Shown here: positions 7,611 to 56,426 of the stretch, piece after piece
Layout: the number at the start of each line of letters is the position of its first letter
How positions within the stretch are numbered: the first letter of the stretch is position 1
From: a virus
Length of the DNA: 64,000 bases
Direction: 5' to 3' (one strand)
IMG/VR virus record: IMGVR_UViG_3300045988_171958
Location: 1 to 64,000 of that record
Notes under the pieces: generated by a model
The model's database searches: none
Seen by the model: only the letters and a program-made list of their open reading frames with translations
What the model was told of the DNA's origin: nothing
Position numbers and translations under genes: made by a program

Positions 7611-7648
7611 GGGAAGTGGTTGATAAACTGCTTCCCATTCTTATTTTT
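7611..7648 (+). terminator. Intrinsic terminator after the GT2 gene
   Basis: GGGAAG (7611-7616) pairs with CTTCCC (7631-7636), followed by ATTCTTATTTTT. Confidence 0.6.
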
Positions 7649-7679
7649 AGATATAAGCATAGATTTACAAAAGCATAAA

Positions 7680-33706: not shown

Positions 33707-34360
33707 ATGATAAATTTCAATTTCATAATTGATTGCTTAGCTTCATTAAATACTATGAGGAATGATGTTGGGTCTATGAAAAACATCAATATTCTTTCTG
33801 ATATGATTAAAGAAGCTATATTGGACAATCAAACAATATATATTACAGGAATAGGTAAGCCAGGATATATAGCTCAAAAGAATGCTGCCACATTGAAATC
33901 AATAATGGTTGATGGACAATTCATAGATGCGTGCTTAGCAGGACATGGAGATTTAGGACCTATTTCAACTGACAAACCATCTTTGTTGATTGCTATGTCA
34001 AAATCTGGATGTTCAAATGAACTTTATGTGTTGTTCAAATACATGAAACAATTGCGACCAAAATGTAAAATTGCAATGATTTGCATGTCAAATGAAATGC
34101 AATTGAATAAAGTAAGGTCATGTAAAGATATTGATTTTATTTGCCATATAAAGACAGATCCAGGAGAGTTGGATGGATTTGGAATTGTACCGGCTACATC
34201 AAATATAATATTTGAAGCAGTAATGTCCACAGCTATATCTGGGGCATTCAATTCAGAAGAGCTTGGTATGGTAAACATGTGTGAAAGATTGCAAAAGAGT
34301 CATCCATCAGGAACATTGCAATCAAAAGTTACTAATCTTTTGAATACTTTAAGAAATTAA
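33707..34360 (+). CDS. SIS-domain sugar-phosphate isomerase, KpsF/GutQ-type (D-arabinose-5-phosphate isomerase-like, no CBS domains)
   Basis: ITGIGKPGYIAQKNAATLKS...AGHGDLGPI...IAMSKSGCSNEL matches G.GKSG.I..K.AAT..S...HGDLG...IS.SGE..E. Confidence 0.7.
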   Translation: MINFNFIIDCLASLNTMRNDVGSMKNINILSDMIKEAILDNQTIYITGIGKPGYIAQKNAATLKSIMVDGQFIDACLAGHGDLGPISTDKPSLLIAMSKSGCSNELYVLFKYMKQLRPKCKIAMICMSNEMQLNKVRSCKDIDFICHIKTDPGELDGFGIVPATSNIIFEAVMSTAISGAFNSEELGMVNMCERLQKSHPSGTLQSKVTNLLNTLRN

Positions 34361-34376: not shown

Positions 34377-34401
34377 CTATATTAGTATTGATTTAAAATT
34401 G

Positions 34402-35727
34402 ATGAAAATGAAAAAGAATTGTTTATTTGTTGTTCAGTCACATTATCCAGAAAGCCATTATATGGAGCTTAACTTAGAGTTAGTTTTTCCATTCTATTTG
34501 GTTACAGATGGAGAAAAAACTATAATTGAGAGAAAGATTGATGAGTTGCTTAATAAATATGATGGGGATATTTATGTTTATGAGGCATTTCATGAATATG
34601 CCGAGTTGCTAAATTCATTTCTTTGCCACAATAGAGAATCTTATGATAGAGTGCATGTAATTTCCGAAATTGATCGAATGGGTGATTTGACAAAAACTTT
34701 TTCTATTGAATGTTGGGATAAAGGTATCAGAGAAGAATTTGACCAAAAGAAATATCTTAGGGATTTGTCAACTAAAAATACATGCAGATATTTCAATCAG
34801 ATTAAAATTGAAGATGATAAAGTAATTAAGATTGCAAAGACAGAAGATGCTATCAAATTACAAAAAATTGAAAATGATTTCTACGACAAATATAGCAATA
34901 TACCATGTTTGTGCGGAAAACAAGGATATGATGAAAATAAACATGAATTGATTTTGAATAAAATCGACGGAGTAACAGCTCAAGAATGGTATTATAAAAA
35001 TGGTGATTTTAAGAAATTGATTTCTAATGTAATCAAAGCTTTACATACCATTAATGATGTTGATATAGATGTAGATGATGAAGATGAAGATATCAGAAGA
35101 GCATTCTACAATGAATTGATTGGAAAGGTATATACTAGGGTAAATCCATGTAAGAAATTGATTGATTATTTCATTGAAGAAACAGAAGTAAGGTGTATTG
35201 ATTACATGCCAATTACAACACATTTTAATGTATTGATGGATGCATTAAAGAAATGGTATGAAAATAATGAAATCAATTTCAATGCATGTCTTTGTCATGG
35301 TGACCCAAATACAGATAATACAATGATTGATAAAGATGGTAATGTAATCTTTATTGATCCTCGTGGATATTTTGGGAATCTTAAGACAATTGGATTAGGA
35401 ATGGCAGAATATGATATTGCAAAATTCTGCTATGGACTTAATGGATATTCAAGATTCAACAGTGCTCCTTATGTCACAATTGAAGAAATTGATTATTCTG
35501 ATGGTATGAATCTTAAATTAGAATATCCATCTGGTGATTTTTCTTCAATTACACAAATTGATTTGGATGATATGCCAATTGATACAAATATAAAGATTAT
35601 CGTTGGTATTATTTGGATGAAATTGACTTCATATATTATAAATGATCCAATGAAGAGTGTAATTGCTTATCTTTATGGAAATGCAATTTGTACAAAATAT
35701 TTAAAGGAATTAAAATATCTAAAGTAA
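34402..35727 (+). CDS. APH/choline-kinase-fold kinase (putative sugar kinase)
   Basis: CLCHGDPNTDNTMIDKDGNVIFIDPRG gives the HGD..N catalytic loop and the D of DxG. The track start at 34399 is TTG, so ATG 34402 is used. Confidence 0.6.
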   Translation: MKMKKNCLFVVQSHYPESHYMELNLELVFPFYLVTDGEKTIIERKIDELLNKYDGDIYVYEAFHEYAELLNSFLCHNRESYDRVHVISEIDRMGDLTKTFSIECWDKGIREEFDQKKYLRDLSTKNTCRYFNQIKIEDDKVIKIAKTEDAIKLQKIENDFYDKYSNIPCLCGKQGYDENKHELILNKIDGVTAQEWYYKNGDFKKLISNVIKALHTINDVDIDVDDEDEDIRRAFYNELIGKVYTRVNPCKKLIDYFIEETEVRCIDYMPITTHFNVLMDALKKWYENNEINFNACLCHGDPNTDNTMIDKDGNVIFIDPRGYFGNLKTIGLGMAEYDIAKFCYGLNGYSRFNSAPYVTIEEIDYSDGMNLKLEYPSGDFSSITQIDLDDMPIDTNIKIIVGIIWMKLTSYIINDPMKSVIAYLYGNAICTKYLKELKYLK

Positions 35728-44478: not shown

Positions 44479-46245
44479 TTATGAATCTATTGATACTACT
44501 AATGGGTCACCAATAGTAGATGGAGCAACAGTTATTTCATCTTCTGGTCTTGGCAATACACCTGAAGAAATGAGTTTTCTAACTAAATGATCTGTCTTTT
44601 CTCCTAAAGCATCTGTATCAATATTCTTTATTCTAAAGAAGTACTTGAAGTGTGAATAGTCAGATAGTTGTACTCCATAAAGATAAGAAGTATCAAACCA
44701 TTTTCCTGCACCCGCATATATACCACAATGATTCAATATAGTAGATTCATTCTTTACACCTATATCACCAGGTTTAAGATCATCAACAGATATTCTTTCC
44801 CAATCATTATCACTGAATAAAGTGAAGAAGTCAACACACATGTTAGGTGTCTTTACATTCAATGCCTTCTTCATTACATATTTGATATATCCAGAACAAT
44901 CCAATCCATATTCTGGTTTGTCTTTACCATGTATCTTATAGAAAAGACCTGGTTGCATAAGTAAGCAGTTGTACATTACTTCTTGTCTCTTACTAGATAT
45001 AAGTGACCAGTCATGTTCCCAAAGTTCAAGAATAGTATTTTTGTCGTATGATGTAAAGCATCTGCCTTTGTCTTGGCCAAATTCAAAATCATCAGTATGG
45101 TAGATAGCATTCTTCTTCATGTATGCTTCTATCTTATCTATCACAATGTCAAACATATTATGCTTGATTTGTTGTGATATTCCTTGAACACCCGGACTTG
45201 AATTATATTCTATTACAAAGTCACCATCAGTACAAGCCATCAAGTCAATACCAACCCATCTGCATCCAGAAAGCTTAGCAACCTTCAATGCAATTTCTTT
45301 TTGCTTGTCTGTCATCTGGTATTCTTCTGTCTTAGCTCCTAATGAGACATTGCTTCTGAAGTCGCCACTTATCTTATCACGTTTCATACAAGCAAGTATC
45401 TCATAATTAGCACCATCAACGGAAAATGCATGTACACGAATGTCACCAGTATTCTCTTTATATTCTTGTATGATGAATTCTGCTTCTTTATCCACAGCAA
45501 ACATAGCTTGCAGTATTCCTTCTATTTCATCATGATTGCAGATGAATACACCAATACCAAGACTACCATTCAGTATCTTTACTACGTATTGTCTGTTTTC
45601 TTTCAGTTCATTTATGTTCTCATTATCTTTATAGATAGAATCAAGCATCTTCCAGAAACTTTCTCTAGTATCGTGGCATTCTGTATTCAAGTCCTCCATC
45701 AATTCTCTTGTTATCAGTACATATCCTGGCTGTGGAATATTTTCTTTAGCCAATAAGTTAGATGCAAGATACTTGTCAGATGCCATGATGATTTCATCTA
45801 TAGTATTCAGCATGAAGAAACCTTCATATTCAAATGCCCTCATCAACCCAATATAGTTTTTCTTATTGTCATCATTAGCTTGACCTTGGAATATGATAGT
45901 ATCATGAATGTTAGAATGTTTCAATGAGAAATGCATGTCTGTTATATCATCATCTATAGATATGATATGATTAGAATAAGTAAATCGTACTGTTGCTTTG
46001 TTCAACCATACAAGATTCAGCTTTCTCTTATGACAGCAAATAGTCAAATAATCTTGATAAGACCAATCTTCTTCTTTTTCTTCTGCCGCTTCATCGTAAC
46101 TCTTTACTTTCTTTTCTCCAACATAGAAGCATATTACATTCTTTATTTCTAACTTGGTATCATTTTTCAGAAGCGTCATTGCTTCATTTATGTTTGCATG
46201 CCCTATGTTCTTATATTCTTTTTCCATTTTATTTACAAAGTTCAT
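44479..46245 (-). CDS. RimK-like ATP-grasp ligase fused to a C-terminal NlpC/P60 cysteine peptidase domain
   Basis: ATP-grasp motifs: KILNGSLGIGVF, GDIRVHAF, GDFRSNVSLGA, VIEYNSSPGVQGI. NlpC/P60 motifs: GLDCSGYIKYV ... PGDIG ... NHCGIYAG. Confidence 0.7.
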   Translation of the reverse strand: MNFVNKMEKEYKNIGHANINEAMTLLKNDTKLEIKNVICFYVGEKKVKSYDEAAEEKEEDWSYQDYLTICCHKRKLNLVWLNKATVRFTYSNHIISIDDDITDMHFSLKHSNIHDTIIFQGQANDDNKKNYIGLMRAFEYEGFFMLNTIDEIIMASDKYLASNLLAKENIPQPGYVLITRELMEDLNTECHDTRESFWKMLDSIYKDNENINELKENRQYVVKILNGSLGIGVFICNHDEIEGILQAMFAVDKEAEFIIQEYKENTGDIRVHAFSVDGANYEILACMKRDKISGDFRSNVSLGAKTEEYQMTDKQKEIALKVAKLSGCRWVGIDLMACTDGDFVIEYNSSPGVQGISQQIKHNMFDIVIDKIEAYMKKNAIYHTDDFEFGQDKGRCFTSYDKNTILELWEHDWSLISSKRQEVMYNCLLMQPGLFYKIHGKDKPEYGLDCSGYIKYVMKKALNVKTPNMCVDFFTLFSDNDWERISVDDLKPGDIGVKNESTILNHCGIYAGAGKWFDTSYLYGVQLSDYSHFKYFFRIKNIDTDALGEKTDHLVRKLISSGVLPRPEDEITVAPSTIGDPLVVSIDS

Positions 46246-47287
46246 TTATAGCTTCTACTAACTTTTCAAAGAACTTACAATTAGTTTCTTCTATGTTAGG
46301 GTCATTGATAGGAGAGCTCGGTCCAGGTGCACCATTCAATTCTACTACTATAGTGTTTCCATTCTGTAATGGTAGCATGTCAACACCACACCATTCAAGA
46401 CCAGATGCTTTAGCAGCTGCTAAAGCCAGCTTTTCTTGTTCAGAAGTCATCTTGTAGTCATCTTCCATGTCACAACCAAGACTGAGATTAGTTCTGAAGT
46501 CTTTACCTTTCTTTCTCATGATAGAAGACAATATCTTTTGCTTACCATTCAATGTAAGTACATGAGCTCTGATATCACCATCTTTTATATCTTGAAAGTC
46601 TTGTATGAGTATTGGACAGTTTTCCTTCAATTTGAACAAACATTGCAATATAGATACAATGTTTTTGCCACGACAGCAAAACACACCTTTGCCACCATGT
46701 CCATTCAGAATCTTACAAACATATTTTAATCCATCATCAAGCTTACCATAGAGTTGCTTTAGCTTTTCATCTAGCTTCTTATGATCTTCTTTATCTATAT
46801 CACCAGAAGTTGCAAGTACATATTTTGGTTGTGGAAGTTCTGCTTTTGTCAAGAAACATGCAGTTGCATATTTATCAGATGACATAGCTACTGCTTCTGG
46901 ATTGTTCAATATCAGTATATCTAATTCTTGTATAGCATCAAGTAAAGCTGATATCACTTCCTTAGTATATCCACTACGCATCAATACTACTGTGTTCTTA
47001 GAATCTGCTTTAGTAAGTACTACATCTGGCAAGTCTTTCTCTCCACTATATATGTGTACTTTATCATCTTTGAAAGAAAAGTTGAGCTTGGTAGGATCTG
47101 CATATTCTACTTTTATCTTATCTCTCTTAAGCATCTTTACAGAATTCAAGTAAAGTTCACCTATCAATATTATTCTTTCTACTTTCTTAAGCTTAGTATG
47201 ATTTTCTACTTTACTGTTACTGTTTTTTTCTACTATATATTCTATAGATTTCAGTTCAGTAATGTAGTTTGTTCCATTGTACTTCAT
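46229..47287 (-). CDS. RimK-like ATP-grasp ligase
   Basis: KILNGHGGKGVFC, GDIRAHVL, KDFRTNLSLG and VVELNGAPGPS. The track start at 47293 is TTG, so ATG 47285-47287 is preferred. The ORF overlaps the downstream gene by 17 nt. Confidence 0.7.
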   Translation of the reverse strand: MKYNGTNYITELKSIEYIVEKNSNSKVENHTKLKKVERIILIGELYLNSVKMLKRDKIKVEYADPTKLNFSFKDDKVHIYSGEKDLPDVVLTKADSKNTVVLMRSGYTKEVISALLDAIQELDILILNNPEAVAMSSDKYATACFLTKAELPQPKYVLATSGDIDKEDHKKLDEKLKQLYGKLDDGLKYVCKILNGHGGKGVFCCRGKNIVSILQCLFKLKENCPILIQDFQDIKDGDIRAHVLTLNGKQKILSSIMRKKGKDFRTNLSLGCDMEDDYKMTSEQEKLALAAAKASGLEWCGVDMLPLQNGNTIVVELNGAPGPSSPINDPNIEETNCKFFEKLVEAINELCK

Positions 47288-47324
47288 TTTCAAATTGAAT
47301 AAATCTTATATATGTAAAAATACT

Positions 47325-48576: not shown

Positions 48577-49722
48577 ATGAGTTGGAAACCTAATTTTGAT
48601 TACAGCAACAAGAACATGAACTTTTATAAAGTTGGTTGTAATTTCGATCCTAAATTGATTGATGTTGCTGTAGAGTTGAATAAGAAATATAAGGGTAAGT
48701 CACAGATTGTAGAATTTTTTGGATCTGATGCAAGTAATGAAGTAGTAACTGCAAGACCAGGTTGGAGATTGCCAGATATTGATAAAGAATTCTTTGCAAA
48801 TTATGTAAAGAAGTTGAAGGATAACAATATCGCATTCAACTATACAATGAATTCAATTCAGCCTTATGGTTCAAAAATGGAAATGCTGAATCATAAGAAA
48901 GATATTCAGGATCTTGTAAAATGGCTAGAAAATATTGGTGTAGCACGTATTACTGTGGCAAACCCAATGATGTTACTTTTTATTAGAGAAGTATCAAATA
49001 TTGAAATTGAGATGTCATGTATTTCTCATATTGATACTGTGACTCAGTTGAAGTATTATCATGAAACATTTGGAGTAAATAAGTTCTGTAATTCAATTCT
49101 TAAGAATCGTAATAAGCATTTCTTAATTAATGCACAGAAGTATTGTGATGAAAATGGTTGCATATTAGAATGTATGGCAAATGAATTTTGTGGAGTAGCT
49201 GGTGTTGATGGAAATGGTACTCATTATGCCACACATTGTGTATTTAGAGATTCTTGCTATCTCTGTCATGCAACAAACAAGACAAAAGAGGATAGTATGT
49301 CTTACAATAATTATCCAATGGGATATTGTATGTCAGCACGTTCATCAACTCCAGAAGCTTGGCTTCGTATGAGATTCATTAGACCAGAGGATCAAAAAAT
49401 TTATCGTGAAAATACTGGTGTAAATTATTTTAAACTTTCTGGTAGAACTGGTACCACAGATTATCTTGAATACATTATGAATGCATATATGTCAGAAAAC
49501 TATGATGGTAATCTTCTTGGTTTGTGGAAACCTCTTTCATCAATTTATGATGGAAAAACAGAATTGAAATCTAAAACAGATATTGATATTCCAAATAAGA
49601 AGCTTGATGGATTCATCAATAAGTGGATGGATGGAAATGGATGGGAATGTGCTGACCAGATGTGTGGTACAACCTGTGATTATTGTGCAAAATTTGCTAA
49701 AGAACATAACTTATATGACTAA
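48577..49722 (+). CDS. Peptidase-U32-family-like protein (putative Fe-S, prephenate-dependent hydroxylase of the RlhA/TrhP/UbiU type)
   Basis: TIM-barrel-like order resembles U32 proteins: ..IVEFFGSD...R......F...V..L...NIAFNYTMNS ... VARITVANPMMLLFIRE ... IEMSCISHIDTV. A Cys cluster follows: LECMANEFCGVAG...HCVFRDSCYLCH. The PROSITE U32 pattern matches only approximately. Confidence 0.4.
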   Translation: MSWKPNFDYSNKNMNFYKVGCNFDPKLIDVAVELNKKYKGKSQIVEFFGSDASNEVVTARPGWRLPDIDKEFFANYVKKLKDNNIAFNYTMNSIQPYGSKMEMLNHKKDIQDLVKWLENIGVARITVANPMMLLFIREVSNIEIEMSCISHIDTVTQLKYYHETFGVNKFCNSILKNRNKHFLINAQKYCDENGCILECMANEFCGVAGVDGNGTHYATHCVFRDSCYLCHATNKTKEDSMSYNNYPMGYCMSARSSTPEAWLRMRFIRPEDQKIYRENTGVNYFKLSGRTGTTDYLEYIMNAYMSENYDGNLLGLWKPLSSIYDGKTELKSKTDIDIPNKKLDGFINKWMDGNGWECADQMCGTTCDYCAKFAKEHNLYD

Positions 49723-50038
49723 TATAACTAACTCTGATTTGAAACTTCTCAAATCATGCAGAGCAGAAATTACAAGAGGTGACCGGTCATTGGTCAACCT
49801 CTTGATTTCTAGAATGAATAATGCTATATTGATAGGAAGAATCAAGAAGAAAGCAGATGAACCTATTGTACAACCAGACAGATGGAATCATGTAATGAAA
49901 AATGTGCATAAGCAATTAGAAGGTTCAAGACTTAGTACTGAATATAAAGAAGAATTTGACTATCTTATTGATAGTATATTCAATATTATTCATGAAGTAT
50001 CATGTAAATTGCAAGAAAAGGATCATGACAATAGATAA
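49715..50038 (+). CDS. Chorismate mutase type II (CM_2)-like protein
   Basis: 107 aa from ATG 49715, overlapping the upstream stop in ATGACTAA. LKSCRAEITRGDRSLVNLLISRMNNAILIGRIKKK...QPDRWNHV...HEVSCKLQ aligns with EcCM R11, R28, K39, D48/R51 and S84/Q88. The E52 position appears to be W. Confidence 0.5.
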   Translation: MTNITNSDLKLLKSCRAEITRGDRSLVNLLISRMNNAILIGRIKKKADEPIVQPDRWNHVMKNVHKQLEGSRLSTEYKEEFDYLIDSIFNIIHEVSCKLQEKDHDNR

Positions 50039-51137
50039 GAAATTTGTAGACGACCACATGCAAGATAAGAATATCTTGTACATACCTATTATCTCTTCTA
50101 TAAATAGAGAGACAAACAAGTATAATTTGGATAGTGATGGAAATGTAGTACGTTTTATTACATTTTTTGAACATCATAAGAATTTCAATACTTTGACAAT
50201 ATTGCTTCCAAAGAATAATGAATCACATGATATCATTGACAGGTGGGTAAAAGACAATGATAATATTGAAATCATTTGGTCAGATAATTTTGGTAAGCAT
50301 GCTGGTGAACAAAGAAGTGATTCTGATGTTGTGAGTAAGATGGAGATGGAATTGTTTGAACTTATAAATAATCCAGATAATGATAATGATTTCAATATTG
50401 TAATGTTTGAAAGTCAATTTTTAGGAAATTTATTGGTTGACCCATATTGGTTTAAAGGATTTGAAAAGGTTTTCTGGTGTCCAGTTTGTAAGATTGATAA
50501 TGAGCATACAAGAAATTTCTTAGAGGGATATGATAATTTGAATAAGAAATTGTTTCAACTTTCGGATTGGTCAATTGTAGAAAGTCCAACACAACTCAAG
50601 AAATTCTCTTTACCAGAATGTTCAATATACCCTTATTATATGATGATGGATCGCAATCTGAAATATTTTGATTATATGACAGATTTTGGATTGAAAGATA
50701 CTATTAAAACAGTTAAGAATCTTGATACAGGTACTTATTCTATTTATTATATTCCTTATAGATTGACTGATGAAGGATATAAAGTAGATGATGTTATTTC
50801 ATATATTAATTATGACTATGCTGATGTGGTTGTTGTGTATTATACAGATCCAAACAATAGTGGAGCAATGGAAGATTTGAAGAAAAAATTCAATTCAAAT
50901 GTTGTTTTCATCAAATTATCAACAGATAGAAATACACATTTTACCATGTTGTCATCAGAAGATGTTGTTGTACCATACTTTGAAGATTTAGATTTCATCA
51001 ATCATGCAACTTTATGGGAAATGATGTCATCAAAATCAAGATGTCAATTTGGAATAACTAAGGAACAATATGATATGAATTCATATAATATGAAATCTTG
51101 TGATAGATGTTTCTATATTGATTTAAAGAATTTATAA
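50025..51137 (+). CDS. Divergent T4 beta-glucosyltransferase (GT63)-like protein, paralog A
   Basis: Phage YSIYYIPYRLTDEG compares with T4 BGT LDVIYGGSFRSGQRE, and FINHATLWEMMSSKSRCQF with FITLRVWETMASDAVMLI. ATG 50025 overlaps the CM stop. Confidence 0.4.
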   Translation: MTIDKKFVDDHMQDKNILYIPIISSINRETNKYNLDSDGNVVRFITFFEHHKNFNTLTILLPKNNESHDIIDRWVKDNDNIEIIWSDNFGKHAGEQRSDSDVVSKMEMELFELINNPDNDNDFNIVMFESQFLGNLLVDPYWFKGFEKVFWCPVCKIDNEHTRNFLEGYDNLNKKLFQLSDWSIVESPTQLKKFSLPECSIYPYYMMMDRNLKYFDYMTDFGLKDTIKTVKNLDTGTYSIYYIPYRLTDEGYKVDDVISYINYDYADVVVVYYTDPNNSGAMEDLKKKFNSNVVFIKLSTDRNTHFTMLSSEDVVVPYFEDLDFINHATLWEMMSSKSRCQFGITKEQYDMNSYNMKSCDRCFYIDLKNL

Positions 51138-51147
51138 ATGAAATAAA

Positions 51148-52371
51148 ATGAATCATGATAGTATTTTATTAAAAATCTTTTTTAATAAAGAGAATAAGAT
51201 AATTGGAGGAAAAGTAGCAAGGATAAAAAGAATATTCCCAAACATATTGTCTTATTTAAATAAAAGATATCCTGATTCATTTTCTTTAAAAGAAACTCTA
51301 ATTAGGATGAAATATCATATTGATGTTCATCCAAAATGCCCGGTTTGTGGAAATTTTACAAAGTTTTATGGGTTTAAAAATTTGATGTTTGCAAATCATT
51401 GTTCTAACAAATGTACTCAATTAGATAGTGAAACTAAAATAAAATTTAAACAAACTTGCTTTAAAAAATATGGGGTTGATGCTCCAATGAAATCTTCTAA
51501 AATAAAAGAAAAATCTAAACAAGTTTGTTTAGAAAAATATGGTGTGGAAAATATATCACAATTTTTTGAAACTAAAGAAAAATATAAACAAACTTGTTTA
51601 GAAAAATATAATGTTGATAATCCATTTAAATTAGAAAAAACGAAAATAAATTCACATTCAAAAGAAGCTAAAGAAAAGCAAAGAAAAACTTGTTTAGAAA
51701 AGTATGGAGTAGAAAATTCATTCCAATCAAAAGAAGTTAGACAAAAATATAAAGAAAATTATAAAAGAAAATATGGAGTAGAAAATCCATTTCAAAACGA
51801 AATAATAAAAGAAAAGATAAAACAAACTTGTTTAGAAAAATATGGTGTTGATAGAGCAATTAAAAGTGATTTGGTAAAAGAAAAATGTAAACAAACTTGC
51901 TTGGAAAAATATGGAAGTAGTTCACCAATGAAAAACCCATATATTGTAAATAAATCTATAAATAAGAGAATTCAAAACAATACTTGGTCTACTTCAAAAC
52001 CAGAAGAAGAATTGTATCTTTATATAAAAGAAAGATTTCCATCTGTAAAAAGACAGTATAAAGATAAAGAAAGATACCCATATTTTTGTGATTTCTACAT
52101 TCCTGAATTAGATTTGTTTTTAGAATTGAATGGGACTTGGACACATGGAAACCATCCTTATGATATGAATTCTAAAGAAGACAATTCTATATTAAATATA
52201 TGGAAAGAAAAATCTAAAGAACATCCTATGTATTTAAGTGCAATAAAAACATGGGTTGTAAGTGATGTAAATAAGAGAAATAAAGCAAAAGAAAATCATT
52301 TAAATTTTAAAGAAGTTTGGAATTTAGATGAAGGAAAAGAATTTATAAATAAATTAACTAGAAGAGAATAA
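51148..52371 (+). CDS. Homing-endonuclease-like protein: Zn-ribbon, 7 C.EKYGV.N repeats, and a C-terminal PD-(D/E)XK/Vsr-like motif
   Basis: CPVCGN...HCSNKC at the N-terminus. The ~30-aa repeat K..C..KYGV.NP.Q occurs 7 times. The C-terminus carries YFCDFYIPELDLFLELNGTWTHG. Confidence 0.55.
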   Translation: MNHDSILLKIFFNKENKIIGGKVARIKRIFPNILSYLNKRYPDSFSLKETLIRMKYHIDVHPKCPVCGNFTKFYGFKNLMFANHCSNKCTQLDSETKIKFKQTCFKKYGVDAPMKSSKIKEKSKQVCLEKYGVENISQFFETKEKYKQTCLEKYNVDNPFKLEKTKINSHSKEAKEKQRKTCLEKYGVENSFQSKEVRQKYKENYKRKYGVENPFQNEIIKEKIKQTCLEKYGVDRAIKSDLVKEKCKQTCLEKYGSSSPMKNPYIVNKSINKRIQNNTWSTSKPEEELYLYIKERFPSVKRQYKDKERYPYFCDFYIPELDLFLELNGTWTHGNHPYDMNSKEDNSILNIWKEKSKEHPMYLSAIKTWVVSDVNKRNKAKENHLNFKEVWNLDEGKEFINKLTRRE

Positions 52372-52373
52372 AG

Positions 52374-53846
52374 ATGAATGTGATATTAGTAAGTGGTGGA
52401 TTACAGACTAGATTTAATGAACTTTCTTGTTTTCCTAAGATATTGTTGCCATCAAAAGATGGAACACCAATTTTGATTAAGCAATTAGATTATTTTGATG
52501 AAGCAAATACAGTAAGTATCGTTGTAAATCAAAAATTTGCAAAGATCATGAAAGCTTATATTGAAATCAATCATCTTAATGTTGATGTGATTGTATCTGA
52601 TAATACTAATGGTTCAGGCAATACTTTAGCTTCTGTATATGATTGGCTTCCAAAAAAGAATGTTTTGTTTTTCTGGTCAGATATTTTGTTTGATAATGAT
52701 GAATTCAAATTGGATAGAAAAATTGAAGATAAAGACAATTGTGTGATTTTTACTGTAAATGATGCAAAATATCGATATAAGATAGAAGATGGTAAGATTG
52801 TAAACAGATCATTTGCTTATGATGGAAATATCCCAGGTATCTTTTGGATCAAAGATATTTCAGAGGTTATTCCAACTAAACCATGTGATGAAAATAAAGA
52901 TTTGATTGATATCATTCAAGAAAAAGTGAATGATGGTATGATTACTTTTGTTGAGTCAAATATCAATACAAAGATTACTGAATATAAGTCATTATCAGAA
53001 TATAAGAAGATTATGTCAACTTCTTATCAGAAAGATTTAGTTTTACCTACTGATATGGAAGTTTCGTATACTGATAAAGAATCCATGCAATATGTAGCAA
53101 AAACAAATGAGCATTTGAATTATCAATATGACTGGATTTCTTTTTTATCTTATAATCCTGGAATTAGTGATTATGTTGTAGATATGCCAGTAAGTAAGAC
53201 AGAAGACGGATACGTTTGTGATATGCACAATCTTGAAGGATATACACATGCATCAAAGGTAAATCTTACTAATCTTTTAAACAATTTTGTAAGATATAAA
53301 GTAGATGTACCATTGTCAACATCTGTAAAATTTTTGTTAGAAGAATATAATGGTAAACCACTGAAGGGGATTTGTGATACATGCAGACTTTTTGAAAATA
53401 ACAGAACATTTGCAGAAGTTCAAACACTTATAGATAATGCATGTAATCTTCTTATAGATGGTTTAGCGAATGATGAATGGGTATTAACTCATGGAAACAT
53501 CAATTCTCATAATGTTCTTGTAAATATGACTGGTGATATCAAATTGTATAATCCAGTATCAAGAAGAAATGGATCTTTTTTCTGCCATCCAATTGTCGAC
53601 CAATCAGAAGCTTATATGGTAGAGATTGGATTAGATGAAGCTTTGAGAAAGGAAATGACATATAAAGTAGATGAACTTCCAAAGATAGAAGATTGTGATG
53701 TGTTTATTGAAACTGCTATCTATCTTCATTTACTTGGTATGCTTCCAATGTTTGCAAAAGATATTATGAAATTGAATATTGTATTGGAGTATGCTATTTC
53801 AGGATTGTCTAACATAATTAATGAATGTATTGATGGAAACAAGTAA
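52374..53846 (+). CDS. Bifunctional sugar-1-phosphate nucleotidyltransferase / APH-fold kinase
   Basis: The N-terminus ILVSGGLQTRF...FPKILLP is an NTP_transferase G-loop. The C-terminus LTHGNINSHNVLVNMTGDIKLYNP is a kinase catalytic loop. Confidence 0.6.
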   Translation: MNVILVSGGLQTRFNELSCFPKILLPSKDGTPILIKQLDYFDEANTVSIVVNQKFAKIMKAYIEINHLNVDVIVSDNTNGSGNTLASVYDWLPKKNVLFFWSDILFDNDEFKLDRKIEDKDNCVIFTVNDAKYRYKIEDGKIVNRSFAYDGNIPGIFWIKDISEVIPTKPCDENKDLIDIIQEKVNDGMITFVESNINTKITEYKSLSEYKKIMSTSYQKDLVLPTDMEVSYTDKESMQYVAKTNEHLNYQYDWISFLSYNPGISDYVVDMPVSKTEDGYVCDMHNLEGYTHASKVNLTNLLNNFVRYKVDVPLSTSVKFLLEEYNGKPLKGICDTCRLFENNRTFAEVQTLIDNACNLLIDGLANDEWVLTHGNINSHNVLVNMTGDIKLYNPVSRRNGSFFCHPIVDQSEAYMVEIGLDEALRKEMTYKVDELPKIEDCDVFIETAIYLHLLGMLPMFAKDIMKLNIVLEYAISGLSNIINECIDGNK

Positions 53847-53931
53847 GTTTAAGACATCAAGAAGAGTATTGAGAGAAGGTTTGACTTGGGCTGATTATTT
53901 TAAGTCCAAGCATACCTTAGAATATATCAAT

Positions 53932-54414
53932 ATGAAGAAAATCATAATTTCTGACTGTGATGGTATCTTGACTGATGGAAATATGACTTATGATGACAAC
54001 AGAAAACGATTTAAAACCTATGGTTGCCATGATAAGGAATTATTCAATATTGCTAAAGACCTTGGATGGGAATTCTTATTTGTAACAGATGATAGGACTG
54101 GATGTGATATTACAGACAGAAGAATAAGTAATTCTTTCATGTTACATGTTACAGAAGCTGATCCAAATGAAAGAGAAAAATTAGTTAAGAAATATAGGGA
54201 TAATGGATACATTGTTGCTTTTATTGGAGATAGTCCAAGTGATGTATCAGCTGCTGTAGCGGCAAATATATGTGCTACTACAGATAATTGCTTTGAATAT
54301 ATAAAACCATTTTTTCATTATGTTTCTAAATATCAAGGTGGACACGGAGGATTTGCTGATATATTATATCAACTAATGCTAATGGATAAAGATGATCTTG
54401 AAATCTATAAGTAA
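53932..54414 (+). CDS. KdsC/YrbI-type HAD phosphatase
   Basis: IISDCDGILTDGNMTYD...FKTYGCHDKE and IGDSPSDVSAA (HAD motifs I and IV of the YrbI subfamily). The start was set at ATG 53932; 53821 or 53833 are possible. Confidence 0.65.
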   Translation: MKKIIISDCDGILTDGNMTYDDNRKRFKTYGCHDKELFNIAKDLGWEFLFVTDDRTGCDITDRRISNSFMLHVTEADPNEREKLVKKYRDNGYIVAFIGDSPSDVSAAVAANICATTDNCFEYIKPFFHYVSKYQGGHGGFADILYQLMLMDKDDLEIYK

Positions 54415-54470: not shown

Positions 54471-55700
54471 ATGATTAAACATATAGAAGAACCTAGTGGA
54501 AAGGGAAGAATAGCATGCATATCTTTACCAGTAAGACATATACTAGTGAATAGAGACAATATCACCATGTATAATGTATATCATTATTGGAAGTATTTGA
54601 CAGAATTTTTGAAATATGATAAAGTATATATATTGACAACATCGTTGTCTAATTCTGGTGAAAAATATAATAACATATTGAAAGATTGCCCATTGATATA
54701 TGGAATTGAAAAGAAAGACTTGTTATTAGATTATCATATAAATGACATGTGGATTGTTCCAGCTCAGACAAATATATTTGGTGGAATGGCTATTATGACC
54801 TTTCCATTTTGTATGAATAGAATATATGAATGGTGGAAATCAAAATCTGCATCAGATAAGATGATATTCATTAATGATGATCCAGAAGTATGTAAGCTTT
54901 GGTTTTTCCGATATCATACTAATCGTTATGCTATTAAGAAAGATGCAAGGATAGTGTGGAAACAAGGAATAAATCAAGATAATTGGAATACAGAAATTGA
55001 TTTGTTAGAATCAAGATATGATGATATATGCAATATGGAAAATGATTTTGATTTGGCATTTTGTGGATTAGATTATGATAAATATGTTAAAGAGTATGGG
55101 ATAAAGGTCTTGCCAAAATCTTGGTTTAATTTCAATGTTTACTATTACATTACATTAAATGATGATTTAGATTTGAGAATGAGAAATTATGACTTTAATG
55201 ATAAGAAATATTCTGCTTGCTATTATGGATATATTAAAGATTTAGATAGAATAGCTAGAACAGAAGAATTTTACAGTAAAGTTGATAAGCCATTTTTAGT
55301 AATTAAAGGAGGTAGTAAGAATTTCTTTAAACATGTAGATTTTGACCATGATATAGATCTTGTAAAAAATATGCCTTATTCAGATTTGCTAAAATTTGTT
55401 CCATCAAATGCTAAGTCTTCATTAATAACACATAACAAATGTATATTGGGTAATCAAGTATCACCAAGATGGTTTGATTTGATGCTTATGGATATTGTAT
55501 GTTTTGTTGACGAAGCTTTTGATCCAAACCATGAATTGTGTGATGATTGGCTTTATGAACATACATATTGTAAGAATGGACAAGATTATGCAGACAAGCT
55601 TAAGAAAATAGAAAACAACGAACCATTATATAGAGAGATTGTTCAAAGACAACGTAAGTTTGTATTTGAAAAGTATGAAAAATATCTCCCGAAATTCTAA
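54471..55700 (+). CDS. T4 beta-glucosyltransferase (GT63)-like DNA glycosyltransferase, paralog B
   Basis: Phage versus T4 BGT (recalled from memory): PAQTNIFGG / VNSSINFFGG; KMIFINDDPEV / KIYYLFTDIRLPF; YSACYYGYIKD / LDVIYGGSFRSG; VSPRWFDLMLMDIVCFVDEAFDPNH / ITLRVWETMASDAVMLIDEEFDTKH. Confidence 0.6.
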   Translation: MIKHIEEPSGKGRIACISLPVRHILVNRDNITMYNVYHYWKYLTEFLKYDKVYILTTSLSNSGEKYNNILKDCPLIYGIEKKDLLLDYHINDMWIVPAQTNIFGGMAIMTFPFCMNRIYEWWKSKSASDKMIFINDDPEVCKLWFFRYHTNRYAIKKDARIVWKQGINQDNWNTEIDLLESRYDDICNMENDFDLAFCGLDYDKYVKEYGIKVLPKSWFNFNVYYYITLNDDLDLRMRNYDFNDKKYSACYYGYIKDLDRIARTEEFYSKVDKPFLVIKGGSKNFFKHVDFDHDIDLVKNMPYSDLLKFVPSNAKSSLITHNKCILGNQVSPRWFDLMLMDIVCFVDEAFDPNHELCDDWLYEHTYCKNGQDYADKLKKIENNEPLYREIVQRQRKFVFEKYEKYLPKF

Positions 55701-55823: not shown

Positions 55824-56426
55824 ATGGAAAAAATTCGGATCATAGTTCTTGAAGGTTGTGATAGAACCGGTAAAGGAACATTATTGGAAAATTTAAAGAA
55901 TAGATTTGATGATTTTTTAGTATATAATCCAGTATCAGCAGAGAAGGAAAAGGTAGATTATAAAAATCCACAGAAATTTGAAGAGTGGATTAAGAAAACA
56001 ATTCGTAAAGTACTTGATGACTTATATACTATGTCAAAGTTGAATGGTACTGATAGACCTATTGTAATGGATCGTCTTTTACTTACAGATAACGTATTTG
56101 CAGATTTATTTGATCGTAAACATGTAGTGGAAAAGTATTTTGGTAGAGAAATTGAAGCAAACTTCAAATTGACTAATTACATTATGCTTTGGAGAAATCC
56201 AGAAGAGTATAAAGATCGAGTAAATTTGTTGAAAGAAAATCAAGATTTTACAGAAAAAGAAATTGATGATATTCTAAGTTTATTCAATGAATATAAGAAA
56301 TCAAATGATATAGTAAAGTTGATTGACAATACAGATACACCAGAAGATATATTAGATGATTTTGTATCAACATTTATTGAAGAAACCCCTAAATGGAAAT
56401 TAGAACATGATAGTACAACACACTAA
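55824..56426 (+). CDS. Thymidylate-kinase/dNMP-kinase-like P-loop kinase
   Basis: IIVLEGCDRTGKGT (EG.D..GK.T P-loop) and MDRLLLTDNVFA (DR..S..aY-like). Confidence 0.55.
   Translation: MEKIRIIVLEGCDRTGKGTLLENLKNRFDDFLVYNPVSAEKEKVDYKNPQKFEEWIKKTIRKVLDDLYTMSKLNGTDRPIVMDRLLLTDNVFADLFDRKHVVEKYFGREIEANFKLTNYIMLWRNPEEYKDRVNLLKENQDFTEKEIDDILSLFNEYKKSNDIVKLIDNTDTPEDILDDFVSTFIEETPKWKLEHDSTTH

Follow-up and report, generated by a model that had tools for sequence, protein, structure and literature searches.

A large phage carries a full-length, very divergent homologue of the beta-glucosyltransferase (BGT; GT63) of phage T4, as confirmed by profile alignment and a predicted structure. The gene (ORF 54471-55700) is located in the window, that is, in the whole stretch of 64 kb of phage DNA that was analysed, and belongs to a cluster of genes with homologues in phages that arabinosylate their DNA. 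We consider it likely that its product is an inverting GT-B glycosyltransferase (GT) of the BGT (GT63) superfamily, from a divergent subfamily, that acts in a BGT-like manner on an acceptor most likely located on the phage DNA, within the pathway of a hypermodification cluster with two GTs. The subfamily, which is carried by large phages, is previously undescribed.

54471..55700, + strand: focal gene, ATG start, 409 aa; divergent GT-B glycosyltransferase of the T4 BGT (GT63) superfamily, second GT of the cluster

Homology, fold and active site of the BGT-like protein

The NCBI gene call for the focal gene has the identical length (409 aa). Searches with the single protein sequence gave a weak signal. 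The sole match of phmmer against the PDB was T4 BGT (E 0.0014, C-terminus only), tblastn returned 43 phage records, all of them T-even b-gt (residues 312-402, ~30% identity), and PHROG 7922 ('beta-glucosyltransferase') matched with E 1.4e-7. The characterised relatives found in these PHROG, PDB and tblastn matches are, without exception, DNA glucosyltransferases. From Pfam, only Glyco_trans_1_2 was obtained, below the threshold, and PF09198 (T4-Gluco-transf, a model of the N-terminal domain) did not match the focal protein even at E<=10. The single-sequence searches (Pfam, PDB, tblastn) cover only the C-terminal ~90 residues and are insufficient as proof on their own; the weak signal was settled by profile-profile comparison and structure prediction.

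When a profile of 17 sequences of the clade of the window protein was aligned by hhalign with a profile of 10 sequences of the T4 BGT clade, the intermediates being left out, the probability was 99.9% and the E-value 1.2e-33 over 340 columns, with residues 13-409 of the window protein corresponding to residues 1-344 of BGT (the BGT sequence used is identical to PDB 1bgt_A at 351/351 positions). The pairwise identity between the focal protein and BGT is ~15-17%. Intermediate sequences match both the window clade and T4 BGT through transitive HMMER links, and one relative from the intermediate group (contig L103) passes PF09198 with 34.1 bits (cutoff 27). Given that PF09198 missed the focal protein although the homology is significant, the protein belongs to the superfamily without being captured by the curated family model.

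The AlphaFold (AF2) model of the focal protein (pLDDT 93.0, pTM 0.91) has a GT-B fold. In a Foldseek search of the PDB, ranks 1-6 were all T4 BGT entries (E 2.8e-13 to 1.4e-10, TM 0.75-0.77, BGT-normalised), and the first match other than BGT followed at 1.3e-6, ~7 orders of magnitude off, with T4 AGT among the later matches. The best matches in a BFVD structure search were BGT-sized proteins. A preliminary description of this DNA had taken the gene to be T4 BGT-like, with HMM alignment and a predicted structure as the proposed checks; the alignment proved collinear and highly significant, and the fold nearest to the model is that of T4 BGT. A chance resemblance or a generic GT-B signal would fit the Pfam results and the low pairwise identity. 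However, it is effectively refuted by the full-length hhalign result together with the Foldseek gap between BGT and every other GT-B protein, and BGT as the sole PDB sequence match and the intermediates joining both clades also speak against it, and we assign it a negligible probability.

The preliminary description had rested on four blocks said to be collinear with T4 BGT, and all four were recovered in that order in the alignment. The NxFGG loop is N101-I-F-G-G105, aligned with N70-F-F-G-G74 of BGT; the segment with the catalytic Asp, given as NDD here and FTD in T4, is N135-D-D137, aligned with F98-T-D100; and the C-terminal, near-diagnostic block V330-S-P-R-W-F-D-L-M...D341.V...D347-E.F-D351..H354 is aligned with I265-T-L-R-V-W-E-T-M...D-E-E-F-D..H290. 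The remaining block was found at Y251-Y-G253 (Y186-G-G188 in BGT), but its letters are YYG and not the YGG by which it had been described. The similarity to T4 BGT exceeds chance by far. Columns that are invariant or at least 90% conserved in 49 sequences of both clades (G104, G105, D137, Y251, G253, R260, R333, D351 and Y366) fall within the blocks of the preliminary description.

D137 occupies the column of D100 of BGT, with an Asp in 17 of the 18 window-clade, 21 of the 22 intermediate and all 10 BGT-clade sequences, and is the predicted catalytic base. The counterparts of the diphosphate/ribose-site residues R191, R195, R269 and E272 of BGT are K256, R260, R333 and D336, which are predicted to bind the diphosphate; the replacements are conservative and fixed in the clade, and R260 is invariant in 50 sequences. 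Other positions have diverged in the window clade: E22 of BGT is not kept (N/A/T/V), Y261 is replaced by I/V and S189 by Y, and, near the donor site, G187 is replaced by H/Y and T99 by D. Retention of the UDP-binding residues would be expected of a conventional T4-type enzyme, whereas the donor-site changes at G187, S189, Y261 and T99 argue against one.

The dN/dS ratio of the focal gene is 0.095-0.122 (about 0.1), indicative of purifying selection and thus of a functional gene. The 90%-identity cluster of the protein has 1556 member sequences on contigs of up to 294 kb, and its clade forms a distinct subfamily on phage contigs of 160-380 kb. The focal protein thus has in common with T4 BGT (CAZy GT63; PDB 1bgt, 1j39, 1nzd) the full-length homology, the GT-B fold, the catalytic Asp and the diphosphate constellation, and both are encoded by phages with modified-base genes. 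In contrast, it is only ~15% identical, 58 residues longer and missed by PF09198, and its gene is part of an NDP-pentose/U32/chorismate-mutase cluster, whereas BGT resides in a T-even genome with gp42.

A cluster with U32, chorismate mutase and sugar-nucleotide genes

The focal gene is embedded, with short gaps, between AfhE-like/HAD genes and a Tmk-like gene, and the cluster genes are co-directional. The following features of the window are relevant here:

33707..34360, + strand: SIS-domain arabinose-5-phosphate isomerase (Ru5P to Ara5P), 217 aa; Pfam SIS; NCBIfam KdsD 3.6e-16, GutQ, KpsF
34399..35727, + strand: APH-fold sugar kinase, 442 aa; Pfam APH, Fructosamin_kin; homologue of the AfhE kinase domain
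44479..47293, - strand: two RimK-type ATP-grasp ligase genes, one fused to NlpC/P60; Pfam RimK 1.8e-31 and 1e-20; they flank the cluster
48577..49722, + strand: U32-family protein, 381 aa; Pfam Peptidase_U32 26.2 bits (cutoff 22.4); phrog_5757 5e-115
49715..50038, + strand: type II chorismate mutase, 107 aa; PF01817 CM_2 E 2.9e-14, 53.5 bits (cutoff 27), profile 1-80/80
50025..51137, + strand: GT-B glycosyltransferase, 370 aa, first GT of the cluster; homologue of the HY126/RB69-type 'arabinosyltransferase 1' (RB69 gp46:47, HY126 GT)
51148..52371, + strand: homing-endonuclease-like gene; Pfam DUF7487 2.4e-40; PHROG homing endonuclease
52374..53846, + strand: AfhE-like nucleotidyltransferase (N-terminal) with a sugar kinase-like domain (C-terminal), 490 aa; similar to HY126 AfhE
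53821..54414, + strand: HAD phosphatase of the KdsC/KDN-9-P phosphatase type; Pfam Hydrolase 2.5e-6; NCBIfam KDN-9-P phosphatase 9e-14, KdsC 2e-9
55824..56426, + strand: thymidylate-kinase-like (Tmk-like) P-loop nucleotide kinase, 200 aa; phrog_761 thymidylate kinase 1.2e-9; weak Pfam dNK/AAA
56407..57009, + strand: second HAD-like protein, 200 aa; paralogue of the HAD at 53821-54414 (24-31% identity, E 1e-7 to 2e-11, from cross-matches in L002-L006)

The preliminary description had made no mention of the first two genes of the cluster, which encode the U32 protein and the chorismate mutase. RB69-like phages, HY126, 92A1 and DLP3 have arabinosyl-5-hydroxycytosine DNA, made with 'Afh' genes (PMC13326640). 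Proteins from 222 phage records, HY126 and 92A1 among them, are 46-49% identical to the window U32 protein over ~96% of its length (for HY126, 47% over 96% of the length, E 4e-118), and on this similarity it is classified as an orthologue of the U32 protein of the arabinosyl-5-hydroxycytosine phages (RB69 gp50 type). The top ten genera for U32 include neither Acinetobacter nor Rhizobium, two aerobic genera whose phages carry the ThyA-type 5hodCMP synthase, and an Acinetobacter phage cluster (L097) has no U32 at the syntenic position; in the Afh/RB69 system, the U32 protein is confined to the enterobacterial members. RB69-type phages combine U32 with an active ThyA-type synthase and have no chorismate mutase, and the RB69 authors' guess for the U32 gene was a 'sugar or heterocycle reductase' (PMC13326640).

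Hydroxylases are known in the U32 family, namely RlhA, TrhP and UbiU/V; prephenate is the oxygen donor for TrhP and UbiU/V (PMC5727448, PMC6599085, PMC10990095, PMC6747719), and the site hydroxylated by TrhP and RlhA is C5 of pyrimidines. The window U32 protein passes the Pfam threshold of this family, and its Cys motif (C199x5C205x15C221x5C227) is near the CX6CX15CX3/4C motif of these enzymes; among five phage U32 homologues, nine Cys are invariant, and three of the four motif Cys are kept. However, the phage proteins are remote from E. coli TrhP and RlhA (hhalign E 0.013 and 0.043), so that direct homology is marginal only, and an additional Cys cluster, CX4CX3CX2C, is found at the C-terminus of the window protein. 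TrhP, RlhA and UbiUV are known to act on RNA or quinones and not on DNA or deoxynucleotides. The window U32 protein is a putative hydroxylase, proposed to be prephenate-dependent, and is coupled to a prephenate-making enzyme.

This enzyme, the chorismate mutase, whose product is prephenate, matches PDB chorismate mutases (3rmi, 1ybz, 6al9), and its NCBI gene call was independently labelled CM_2. The gene is translationally coupled between U32 and the 370-aa GT: its start codon overlaps the stop codon of U32, and its last 14 nt are shared with the beginning of the GT gene that follows. Homologous chorismate mutase genes are present in contigs L002-L006, L102 and L103, the L103 copy being a fusion with DAHP synthase. 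Another phage use of prephenate is the CmoA/Cx-SAM route (PMC12783734); carboxymethylation by CmoA/CmoX was rejected for the window, in which Pfam scans and precomputed labels showed no CmoA-like or C5-MTase-like gene.

Also missing from the preliminary description was the 370-aa GT, the real homologue of the RB69/HY126 arabinosyltransferase. Its AF2 model (pLDDT 92.8, pTM 0.91) has GT-B matches in Foldseek (LmbT 8il0, 2e-8; UGT89C1; SPS 6kih). In a direct comparison with the HY126 GT it gives two weak but collinear HSPs, and its L103 homologue matches the HY126 GT with E 5e-9 over 342 aa; altogether, 48 homologues were found. The focal BGT-like protein, by contrast, shares the GT-B fold with the Afh GTs and no homology beyond that. 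The DUF7487 gene is missing at the same position in L002-L006, L014 and L015 and thus appears to be a recent mobile insertion that is no functional part of the pathway.

The sugar-nucleotide genes also point to the Afh system. The isomerase gene, 14 kb upstream of the cluster, encodes a protein that is 29% identical to the HY126 isomerase (E 9e-11), and the 442-aa kinase is 30% identical to residues 195-508 of HY126 AfhE over 339 aa (E 2.5e-31). The N-terminus of the 490-aa protein is 27% identical to residues 4-155 of AfhE (E 1.7e-10) and matches NCBIfam sugar-1-P nucleotidylyltransferases. For its C-terminal domain no similarity to AfhE was found directly, but a 507-aa protein of L103 bridges the two, matching residues 1-483 of the 490-aa protein (1e-50) and residues 4-505 of AfhE (8e-40), and bridging of this type is also provided by contig L100. 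The HAD at 53821-54414, for which the NCBI call begins four codons later (193 aa), has 40% identical counterparts at the same position in L100 and L103. No similarity of the two window HADs to HY126 AfhF was found, and, being KdsC-type, they look like an analogous, non-orthologous replacement for AfhF; the HAD at 53821-54414 would presumably take the 5-phosphate off the sugar bisphosphate. The second HAD-like protein has no family match of its own in Pfam or NCBIfam. Homologues of the Tmk-like kinase are found in the L100, L102 and L103 clusters (E 1e-24 to 2e-33), and analogous kinases occur in the RB69, DLP3 and RL38J1 clusters (PMC13326640); presumably, the kinase acts on a modified dNMP. 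ATP-grasp genes homologous to the RimK pair flank cassettes in L012, L102 and the P0238 contig, but their tie to DNA modification is uncertain.

Two other sugar pathways were rejected. A heptose pathway (GmhA/HldE/GmhB) follows the same logic, but the PDB matches of the SIS protein are exclusively arabinose-5-P isomerases (2xhz, 3etn, 5uqi), with no GmhA. For a Kdo pathway (KdsD with a KdsC-like HAD), KdsA and KdsB were not seen, and the nucleotidyltransferase, a homologue of AfhE, belongs with the sugar-1-P (GxGxR) enzymes. The isomerase, the AfhE-like kinase/nucleotidyltransferase and the HAD phosphatases justify the earlier caution that the donor may not be UDP-glucose. Since the arabinosyltransferase homologue is the 370-aa GT, however, the phage-made NDP-pentose may feed that enzyme, and the BGT-like enzyme need not use it.

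Compared with the Afh/RB69 system, the window has homologues of U32, the arabinose-5-P isomerase, the AfhE kinase and nucleotidyltransferase domains and the first GT, and both systems have a Tmk-like kinase, at least two GTs per cluster and, presumably, a HAD phosphatase step. The window differs in that it lacks the ThyA-type 5hodCMP synthase (D169N signature) and has an added chorismate mutase, in that its HAD is KdsC-type and not AfhF-like, and in that its extra GT is BGT/GT63-like instead of GT4-like. Furthermore, the genome is not T4-like (~294 kb), and the host setting appears to be anaerobic (NrdD/NrdG). Anaerobic NrdD/NrdG genes lie close by, downstream, and the only hints to the host are these genes, an OmpA-domain gene and the binning of a related contig into an Erysipelotrichales MAG. 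GT2 and Peptidase_G2 genes are also present in the window.

A BGT-fold GT might instead have a target other than DNA, for instance a protein of the virion, a polymer of the host envelope or some small molecule, with the neighbouring sugar genes serving that target. The isoelectric points would fit this, as the focal protein (pI 6.23) and the 370-aa GT (pI 4.8) are unlike the basic T4 BGT (pI 9.05); moreover, GT-B folds are versatile, the 370-aa GT resembles LmbT and plant UGTs, and the OmpA-domain, GT2 and Peptidase_G2 genes lie in the same window. Nevertheless, we regard a non-DNA target as improbable: the only characterised members of the superfamily modify DNA, the linkage to nucleotide/DNA C5-modifying enzymes and Tmk-like dNMP kinases has arisen repeatedly and independently, and the homologues of U32, the isomerase, AfhE and the GT are part of a system for which DNA arabinosylation has been demonstrated by experiment (PMC13326640). 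The gene context thus lends good support to the earlier proposal that the phage DNA is glycosylated.

Related contigs and the possible origin of the modified base

The set of U32, 370-aa GT, AfhE-like, HAD and Tmk-like genes recurs in L100 and L103, two unrelated gut-phage contigs, and is accompanied in L103 by the BGT-family protein of a different subfamily that matches PF09198. Other lineages of the focal GT clade that were inspected are all of the hmC type. The distant members L007 and L012 encode a gp42-type dCMP hydroxymethylase, 46-49% identical to T-even gp42, as well as a GT4-like GT and a C5-MTase-family gene. In L008, a C5-MTase gene is located directly upstream of the BGT-like gene and a gp42-like gene is found elsewhere on the contig; in L008/L009, the gp42-like gene is ~100 kb from the GT gene. 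The P0238 contig, from a relative of the L012 type, has a ThyA-based cassette between RimK and OmpA flanks, the position that the U32/chorismate-mutase cassette occupies in the window and in L102. The neighbours of the BGT-like gene in L011 had no Pfam matches.

The hmC modules with two GTs in L007, L012 and P0238, like the T-even alpha-/beta-GT pairs, have in common with the window a BGT-family GT and a second GT-B protein next to a Tmk-like kinase, and the L012-type phages also the flanks, from RimK ATP-grasp to OmpA. However, these modules encode a gp42-type hydroxymethylase and a member of the C5-MTase family but lack a sugar-nucleotide pathway, whereas the window has U32, chorismate mutase and arabinose-pathway genes instead. 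Because the other inspected lineages of the clade are all of the hmC type, 5hmC and UDP-glucose are favoured as the ancestral substrates.

The lack of a nearby gene for hmC synthesis had not been mentioned in the preliminary description. No ThyA-family ORF was found by hmmsearch --max in the 64-kb window, and none in the 10 kb downstream of it or in L100, L102 and L103. As ~220 kb of the ~294-kb genome lie beyond the inspected DNA, an hmC or 5hoC synthase gene of the ThyA family may be located there, at a distance like that of the gp42-like gene in L008/L009. In a gp42-type scan of IMG/VR, no contig of the present phage was among the best 80 of 162 matches, and a ThyA search of 5.8 billion proteins yielded none assignable to this phage among the matches listed (120 of 923).

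These results bear on the T4-type enzyme mentioned above, which would transfer glucose from host UDP-glucose to 5hmC made with a gp42-like gene elsewhere in the genome, while U32, the 370-aa GT and the genes of the arabinose pathway would belong to another modification, either separate from it or added to it. It is in agreement with the hmC-type context, free of sugar-pathway genes, of the distant clade members L007, L012 and P0238, with the remote gp42-like genes of L008/L009 and with the assignment of the known arabinosyltransferase's homologue to the other GT. In contrast, the lack of a ThyA-family ORF in the window and the 10 kb downstream and the lack of contigs of this phage among the best 80 of 162 gp42-type matches, together with the tight embedding of the focal gene between the AfhE-like/HAD and Tmk-like genes, argue against it, and we judge it unlikely, although less so than a non-DNA target.

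Proposed pathway and implications

For the preferred BGT-like enzyme acting on phage DNA, the NDP-sugar would sit in the C-terminal Rossmann domain (K256, R260, R333, D336), and D137 would deprotonate the acceptor hydroxyl, which would attack C1 of the sugar to give a beta linkage. A C5-modified pyrimidine may offer its hydroxyl as the acceptor, or this role may fall to a first sugar that the base already bears. In the proposed pathway, chorismate mutase would provide prephenate, with which the U32 protein would hydroxylate a pyrimidine nucleotide at C5 independently of O2. Phosphorylation by the Tmk-like kinase would then lead the modified dNMP on to the triphosphate that is incorporated. From ribulose-5-P, a donor of the NDP-arabinose type would be made by the isomerase, the AfhE-like enzyme and the HAD phosphatase, and the DNA would be glycosylated by the 370-aa GT and the BGT-like GT. 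The analysis establishes the family, the fold, the conservation of the catalytic residues, the purifying selection, the make-up of the cluster and its recurrence in other phages; the DNA target, the donor, the acceptor and the parts played by U32 and chorismate mutase are proposals.

We infer glycosylation on a C5-hydroxylated pyrimidine, of which a U32 hydroxylase using prephenate is a possible source. The ThyA-type 5hodCMP synthase of RB69 and DLP3 depends on O2 and flavin, and, to our knowledge, the only known phage enzyme for 5-hydroxypyrimidines requires O2. More specifically, and tentatively, anaerobe-associated phages may produce glycosylated 5-hydroxypyrimidine DNA without O2, C5 hydroxylation of dCMP/dUMP (or DNA) via chorismate mutase, prephenate and U32 replacing the ThyA-type synthase, and the GT63/BGT-like enzyme being recruited for an arabinose-type sugar or for extension of an arabinosyl stub. 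The coupled chorismate mutase, the negative ThyA results for the window, L100, L102 and L103, the nearby NrdD/NrdG genes, the genera in which U32 and the ThyA-type synthase occur and the exchange of cassettes between the RimK and OmpA flanks speak for the U32/prephenate step. Points against the proposed pathway and target are the non-basic pI of the focal protein, its lack of E22 and Y261, the miss by PF09198, the hmC-type setting of the other lineages, the remote similarity of phage U32 proteins to TrhP/RlhA, the pairing of U32 with an active ThyA-type synthase in RB69-type phages and the other phage use of prephenate. The cluster thus suggests an O2-independent route of glycosylation that has not yet been described for DNA. 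In a literature search, no earlier description of the U32/chorismate-mutase/BGT-like arrangement was found, the original HY126 Afh papers being outside its scope.

In the records and papers searched, enzymes of the BGT/GT63 type were annotated solely as T-even-like hmC glucosyltransferases. The BGT family is much wider, with distinct subfamilies in metagenomic phages of 160-380 kb and with at least two kinds of base-modification cassette. DNA hypermodification governs the escape of phages from restriction and CRISPR, and their targeting by defence systems. In view of the 1556-member protein cluster, which indicates an abundant phage, the modification would be widespread in the communities sampled, which are apparently those of the gut. 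The cluster also suggests a testable role for the U32 gene in RB69-type arabinosyl-5-hydroxycytosine clusters and a testable route to 5-hydroxypyrimidines in strictly anaerobic phage-host systems. If true, this would be the first prephenate/U32-dependent hydroxylation that feeds DNA modification and would give a reason for shikimate-pathway genes in phages; the U32 protein (RB69 gp50) of the enterobacterial arabinosyl-5hoC phages would then be an anaerobic back-up, like the dual pathways TrhO/TrhP and UbiIHF/UbiUV of E. coli.

Similarity of the BGT-like protein to T4 beta-glucosyltransferase

The open reading frame at 54471-55700 (+ strand, ATG start, 409 codons), which the preliminary description had read as a gene resembling that of T4 DNA beta-glucosyltransferase (BGT, family GT63), was recovered at equal length in a second, independent gene call on the matching NCBI record CACVDK010000001.1 (293,853 bp), and its G+C content of about 28-30% is that of the remaining window. 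Judged by sequence comparison, the signals from the single protein are weak yet very specific. The sole match in a Pfam scan was a sub-threshold one to Glyco_trans_1_2 (E 0.0027), and PF09198 was not matched. The PHROGs family 7922 (beta-glucosyltransferase) matched residues 312-399 (E 1.4e-7), and phmmer against all PDB sequences returned only T4 BGT and its D100A mutant (E 0.0014), a further sub-significant segment aligning NIFGG of the window protein with NFFGG of BGT. By tblastn, 43 of 50,697 phage records were matched, all through T-even-type b-gt genes, over residues 312-402 only and at about 30% identity.

A word-indexed search yielded only five close relatives (68-92% identity). An exhaustive HMMER search with the alignment of these relatives retrieved 66 proteins. 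About 14 of them are full-length (400-450 aa); behind these comes a tail of proteins of 350-390 aa that are genuine BGT relatives, with E values down to 1e-49 for BGT as query (a sequence identical to PDB 1bgt_A at 351/351 positions). An intermediate group matches both the window clade and BGT. With these intermediates left out, alignment of the window-clade profile (n = 17) to the BGT-clade profile (n = 10) gave a probability of 99.9% and an E value of 1.2e-33 over 340 aligned columns, joining window residues 13-409 to BGT residues 1-344. The four sequence blocks initially proposed as collinear with BGT are thus embedded in a collinear, full-length alignment. The anticipated GT-B/GT63-like fold was likewise borne out: for the AlphaFold2 model (49-sequence alignment, mean pLDDT 93.0, pTM 0.91), Foldseek ranks 1-6 in the PDB were all T4 BGT entries (E 2.8e-13 to 1.4e-10, TM 0.75-0.77 normalised to BGT), followed by the next GT-B protein at E 1.3e-6 and T4 alpha-glucosyltransferase at E 4.4e-6. 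A search of a viral structure library agreed with this result.

Correspondence of active-site residues in T4 BGT and the window protein
BGT D100 (catalytic base; D100A mutant, PDB 1nzd): window D137, Asp in 48/50 sequences
BGT R195: window R260, invariant
BGT R191: window K256, conservative
BGT R269: window R333, conserved
BGT E272: window D336, conservative

Compared with BGT, the window clade has an invariant D-D in place of T-D, H/Y at G187, Y at S189 and I/V at Y261, which is invariant in BGT, and no acidic residue at E22. The window protein has 58 additional residues and a pI of 6.2, versus 9.05 for BGT. Values of dN/dS between the gene and four relatives (0.095-0.122) indicate purifying selection, and the 90%-identity cluster of the protein comprises 1556 member sequences on contigs of up to 294 kb. 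Taken together, alignments and model show a BGT-superfamily GT-B enzyme in which the predicted catalytic Asp and nucleotide-diphosphate site are intact; by these sequence criteria it is a functional member of the superfamily, although the curated Pfam model does not capture it. The gene represents a divergent, new subfamily of a familiar enzyme type.

The gene cluster and the arabinosyl-5-hydroxycytosine phages

Between 48577 and 57009, all genes run in one direction, with overlaps or small gaps between them. The ATG of the chorismate mutase (CM) gene overlaps the stop codon of the U32 gene, and its 3' end overlaps the following start by 14 nt.

Genes of the cluster and associated genes in the window
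33707-34360, +, SIS isomerase, 14 kb upstream of the cluster
34399-35727, +, APH-fold sugar kinase, neighbour of the SIS isomerase and 14 kb distant from the cluster; gives the best match with the kinase domain of AfhE
44479-46245 and 46229-47293, -, two RimK-type ATP-grasp ligase genes flanking the cluster, one fused to NlpC/P60
48577-49722, +, U32-family protein, above the Pfam threshold; phrog_5757, 5e-115
49715-50038, +, type II CM, 107 aa; PF01817, 53.5 bits versus a cutoff of 27
50025-51137, +, GT-B protein of 370 aa (370-aa GT); AlphaFold model with GT-B fold, pLDDT 92.8
51148-52371, +, homing-endonuclease-like gene (DUF7487), between the 370-aa GT and AfhE-like genes
52374-53846, +, nucleotidyltransferase/kinase-like (AfhE-like) protein, 490 aa
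53821-54414, +, KdsC-type HAD phosphatase
54471-55700, +, BGT-like gene, between the HAD phosphatase and thymidylate-kinase-like genes
55824-56426, +, thymidylate-kinase-like kinase
56407-57009, +, second HAD-like protein

The SIS isomerase matches arabinose-5-P isomerases only (KdsD, GutQ and KpsF in NCBIfam; 2xhz, 3etn and 5uqi in the PDB). Since the APH-fold kinase is present besides the 490-aa protein, the pathway appears to hold two kinase-like domains. The best structural matches of the 370-aa GT model are LmbT, UGT89C1 and sucrose-phosphate synthase. The RimK-type ligases might ligate an amino acid to a modification or may merely mark a syntenic island. Elsewhere in the window, three very large ORFs of 1310, 1669 and 2279 aa (259-4191, -; 11820-16829, +; 16915-23754, +) have no Pfam annotation; together with a Peptidase_G2 gene and a GT2 gene at about 5.9-7.6 kb, they probably form a tail or fibre region.

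The DNA of phages RB69 and DLP3 contains 5-hydroxycytosine carrying one to three arabinoses (Lee et al., NAR 2026, PMC13326640). A ThyA homologue bearing the signature D169N is the source of 5hodCMP, and the clusters add a Tmk-like kinase, GT4-like arabinosyltransferases, the HAD phosphatase AfhF, the bifunctional kinase/nucleotidyltransferase AfhE and an arabinose-5-P isomerase; the U32-like gp50 of RB69, labelled 'sugar or heterocycle reductase', was left unexplained (PMC13326640). When the corresponding cluster of phage HY126 was compared with the window by blastp, homologues were found of the isomerase (E 9e-11), the kinase (2.5e-31) and nucleotidyltransferase (1.7e-10) domains of AfhE, and U32 (4e-118); none was found of the ThyA-like synthase, GT, kinase or AfhF. 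A related locus, L103, bridges two of the proteins. Its 507-aa protein aligns with all of the window 490-aa protein and all of AfhE, identifying the 490-aa protein as an orthologue of AfhE. The 370-aa GT itself gives two weak, collinear HSPs with the HY126 GT, and its L103 homologue matches that GT over 342 residues (E 5e-9). The 370-aa GT therefore corresponds to 'arabinosyltransferase 1', and the BGT-like gene is an additional GT, from a family unreported in RB69/HY126-type systems. A ThyA-type enzyme adjoins the GTs in every characterised system but is lacking from the window: no ThyA-family ORF was found in the window (64 kb of the 293,853-bp genome) or in the related loci L100, L102 and L103. 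The reading as a T4 BGT-like gene is supported, and a second GT, the U32/CM pair and the lack of a ThyA-type gene in the window are added to it.

These alignments show that the other parts of the cluster have homologues in a system for which DNA glycosylation is proven. The BGT-like enzyme would accordingly be expected to act on phage DNA, with inversion of configuration, its acceptor being either a base hydroxyl or a first sugar. Of the two GTs, the 370-aa one is more likely to use the phage-made NDP-pentose, because it is homologous to a known arabinosyltransferase and because at L100 a GT of this type lies beside the sugar-pathway genes and a BGT-like gene is lacking for 10 kb around it. 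If so, the BGT-like enzyme may add a second, beta-linked sugar, much as beta-arabinosyltransferases 2/3 do in RB69 and DLP3; another possibility is that it transfers glucose, with host UDP-glucose as the donor.

Gene neighbourhoods in related phages

Contexts of the BGT-like clade were taken from an IMG/VR scan (coordinates are those of each locus). The close relatives L002-L006, on contigs of 194-283 kb, keep the cluster without the endonuclease, and the homing-endonuclease-like gene was not found at the matching site in L002-L006, L014 and L015. More DUF7487 and GIY-YIG copies occur at other sites in relatives, one of them between the two NrdD gene fragments of L015. The U32 gene of L002 (5258-6466) encodes a protein only 75% identical to that of the window, compared with 96-98% identity elsewhere, which suggests allele replacement via recombination inside the cluster.

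At L007 (35% identity), a gp42-type dCMP hydroxymethylase, a C5-methyltransferase-family gene and a GT4-like GT gene are followed by the BGT-like gene. The gp42-type enzyme is 46-49% identical to T-even gp42, and its motif FRSND indicates that D169 is retained. L012 comprises genes for a Tmk-like kinase, a gp42-like and a second ThyA-like protein, a GT4-like GT, the BGT-like protein and a C5-methyltransferase-like protein, with a RimK ATP-grasp gene adjoining. Its tandem ThyA-family genes (7322-8092, gp42-like, 256 aa; 8096-8671, a shorter paralogue of 191 aa) both encode RSND, with D169 retained, and the same pair is carried by the P0238 contig (NCBI, 245,817 bp), where the genes are arranged as in L012 and bounded by RimK ATP-grasp and OmpA genes, the flanks also seen in the window and L102. 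At L008, the C5-methyltransferase gene lies directly upstream of the BGT-like gene, and a gp42-like gene is located about 100 kb away on the same 364-kb contigs. The C5-cytosine DNA methyltransferase-family genes adjoining the BGT-like gene in these three distant lineages (L007, 828-2114; L008, 8373-9605; L012, 11277-12566) could encode ordinary methylases or CmoX-like carboxymethyltransferases.

The relatives of the 370-aa GT include L100, which has a GT of this type, SIS isomerase, AfhE-like protein, Tmk-like kinase, HAD protein and U32 (58% identical to that of the window), and close by a dCMP deaminase. Directly after its U32 gene comes a TnpB-like gene (17366-18622) with a Cas12f1-like_TNB domain. 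L102 has a RimK ATP-grasp protein, U32 (70%), an RmlC-like protein, CM, a Tmk-like kinase, a GT and OmpA; the RmlC-like dTDP-sugar isomerase replaces the arabinose genes, and further on (15309-16031) another shikimate-pathway gene encodes a protein with a shikimate-dehydrogenase N-domain. This 90-kb contig (GCA_022508565.1, JAFLUY010000008.1) is clearly phage-like and related to the window phage, and is filed under an 'Erysipelotrichales bacterium' MAG. L103 has NrdD, U32 (70%), dCMP deaminase, a DAHP-synthase/CM fusion (7757-8824, beside the cluster), a BGT-family protein of the intermediate group (PF09198, 34.1 bits), a GT, SIS isomerase, AfhE-like protein, Tmk-like kinase, HAD protein and NrdG. 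Thus, two BGT-family subfamilies recur in the pentose-pathway/U32-type cluster.

RimK-type ATP-grasp homologues flank the modification cassettes of L012, L102 and the P0238 contig. An island with RimK ATP-grasp and OmpA-domain genes as its borders (about 44.5-58.6 kb in the window; L102, L012 and the P0238 contig) seems to be common to related large phages, with cassettes swapped inside it: a ThyA-family/GT4/BGT-like/methyltransferase set versus U32/CM/GT/sugar-pathway sets.

U32, chorismate mutase and a possible origin of the acceptor hydroxyl

The U32 and CM genes form the head of the operon. The U32-family proteins RlhA and TrhP are needed for the formation of ho5C and ho5U in RNA, UbiU/V perform an O2-independent hydroxylation of quinone precursors, and prephenate, the product of CM, is the oxygen donor or a required co-substrate (PMC5727448, PMC6599085, PMC6747719, PMC10990095). 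The acceptor hydroxyl in the window phage could be generated analogously, via U32 and CM on an O2-independent route. The cysteines of the window U32 (C199x5C205x15C221x5C227) are near the family Fe-S motif CX6CX15CX3/4C; the resemblance of the phage U32 proteins to TrhP and RlhA is no more than remote. At L100, U32 is present without CM. A different phage DNA modification also draws on prephenate, via CmoA (PMC12783734); neither a CmoA nor a C5-methyltransferase gene was found in the window.

Just past the window end, at about 16-20 kb of the loci L013, L014 and L015, lie genes for the anaerobic ribonucleotide reductase NrdD (a single intact gene in L014, split into two calls in L013 and in L015) and its activase NrdG, together with those for a lysozyme and a DHH protein. 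The NrdD/NrdG pair points to an anaerobic host. A ThyA-type synthase was found in 378 phage records, including 57 of Acinetobacter and 22 of Rhizobium phages. Proteins 46-49% identical to the window U32 over about 96% of its length come from 222 phage records, the top ten genera of which are mostly enterobacterial and include neither Acinetobacter nor Rhizobium, a pattern that is confounded by phylogeny. U32 is lacking from the Acinetobacter phage cluster L097, which shares synteny with that of HY126. NrdD/NrdG, the host-genus pattern and L097 all fit an O2-independent role of U32.

In the literature searched, nothing linked GT63/BGT-type enzymes to pentose clusters, or U32 or CM to phage DNA hydroxylation; the RB69 study names tRNA hydroxylation pathways only as unrelated to the ThyA-type synthase (PMC13326640). 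The cluster differs in a new way from the known glycosylated-hydroxypyrimidine systems, and it yields a specific, testable hypothesis of an oxygen-independent route.
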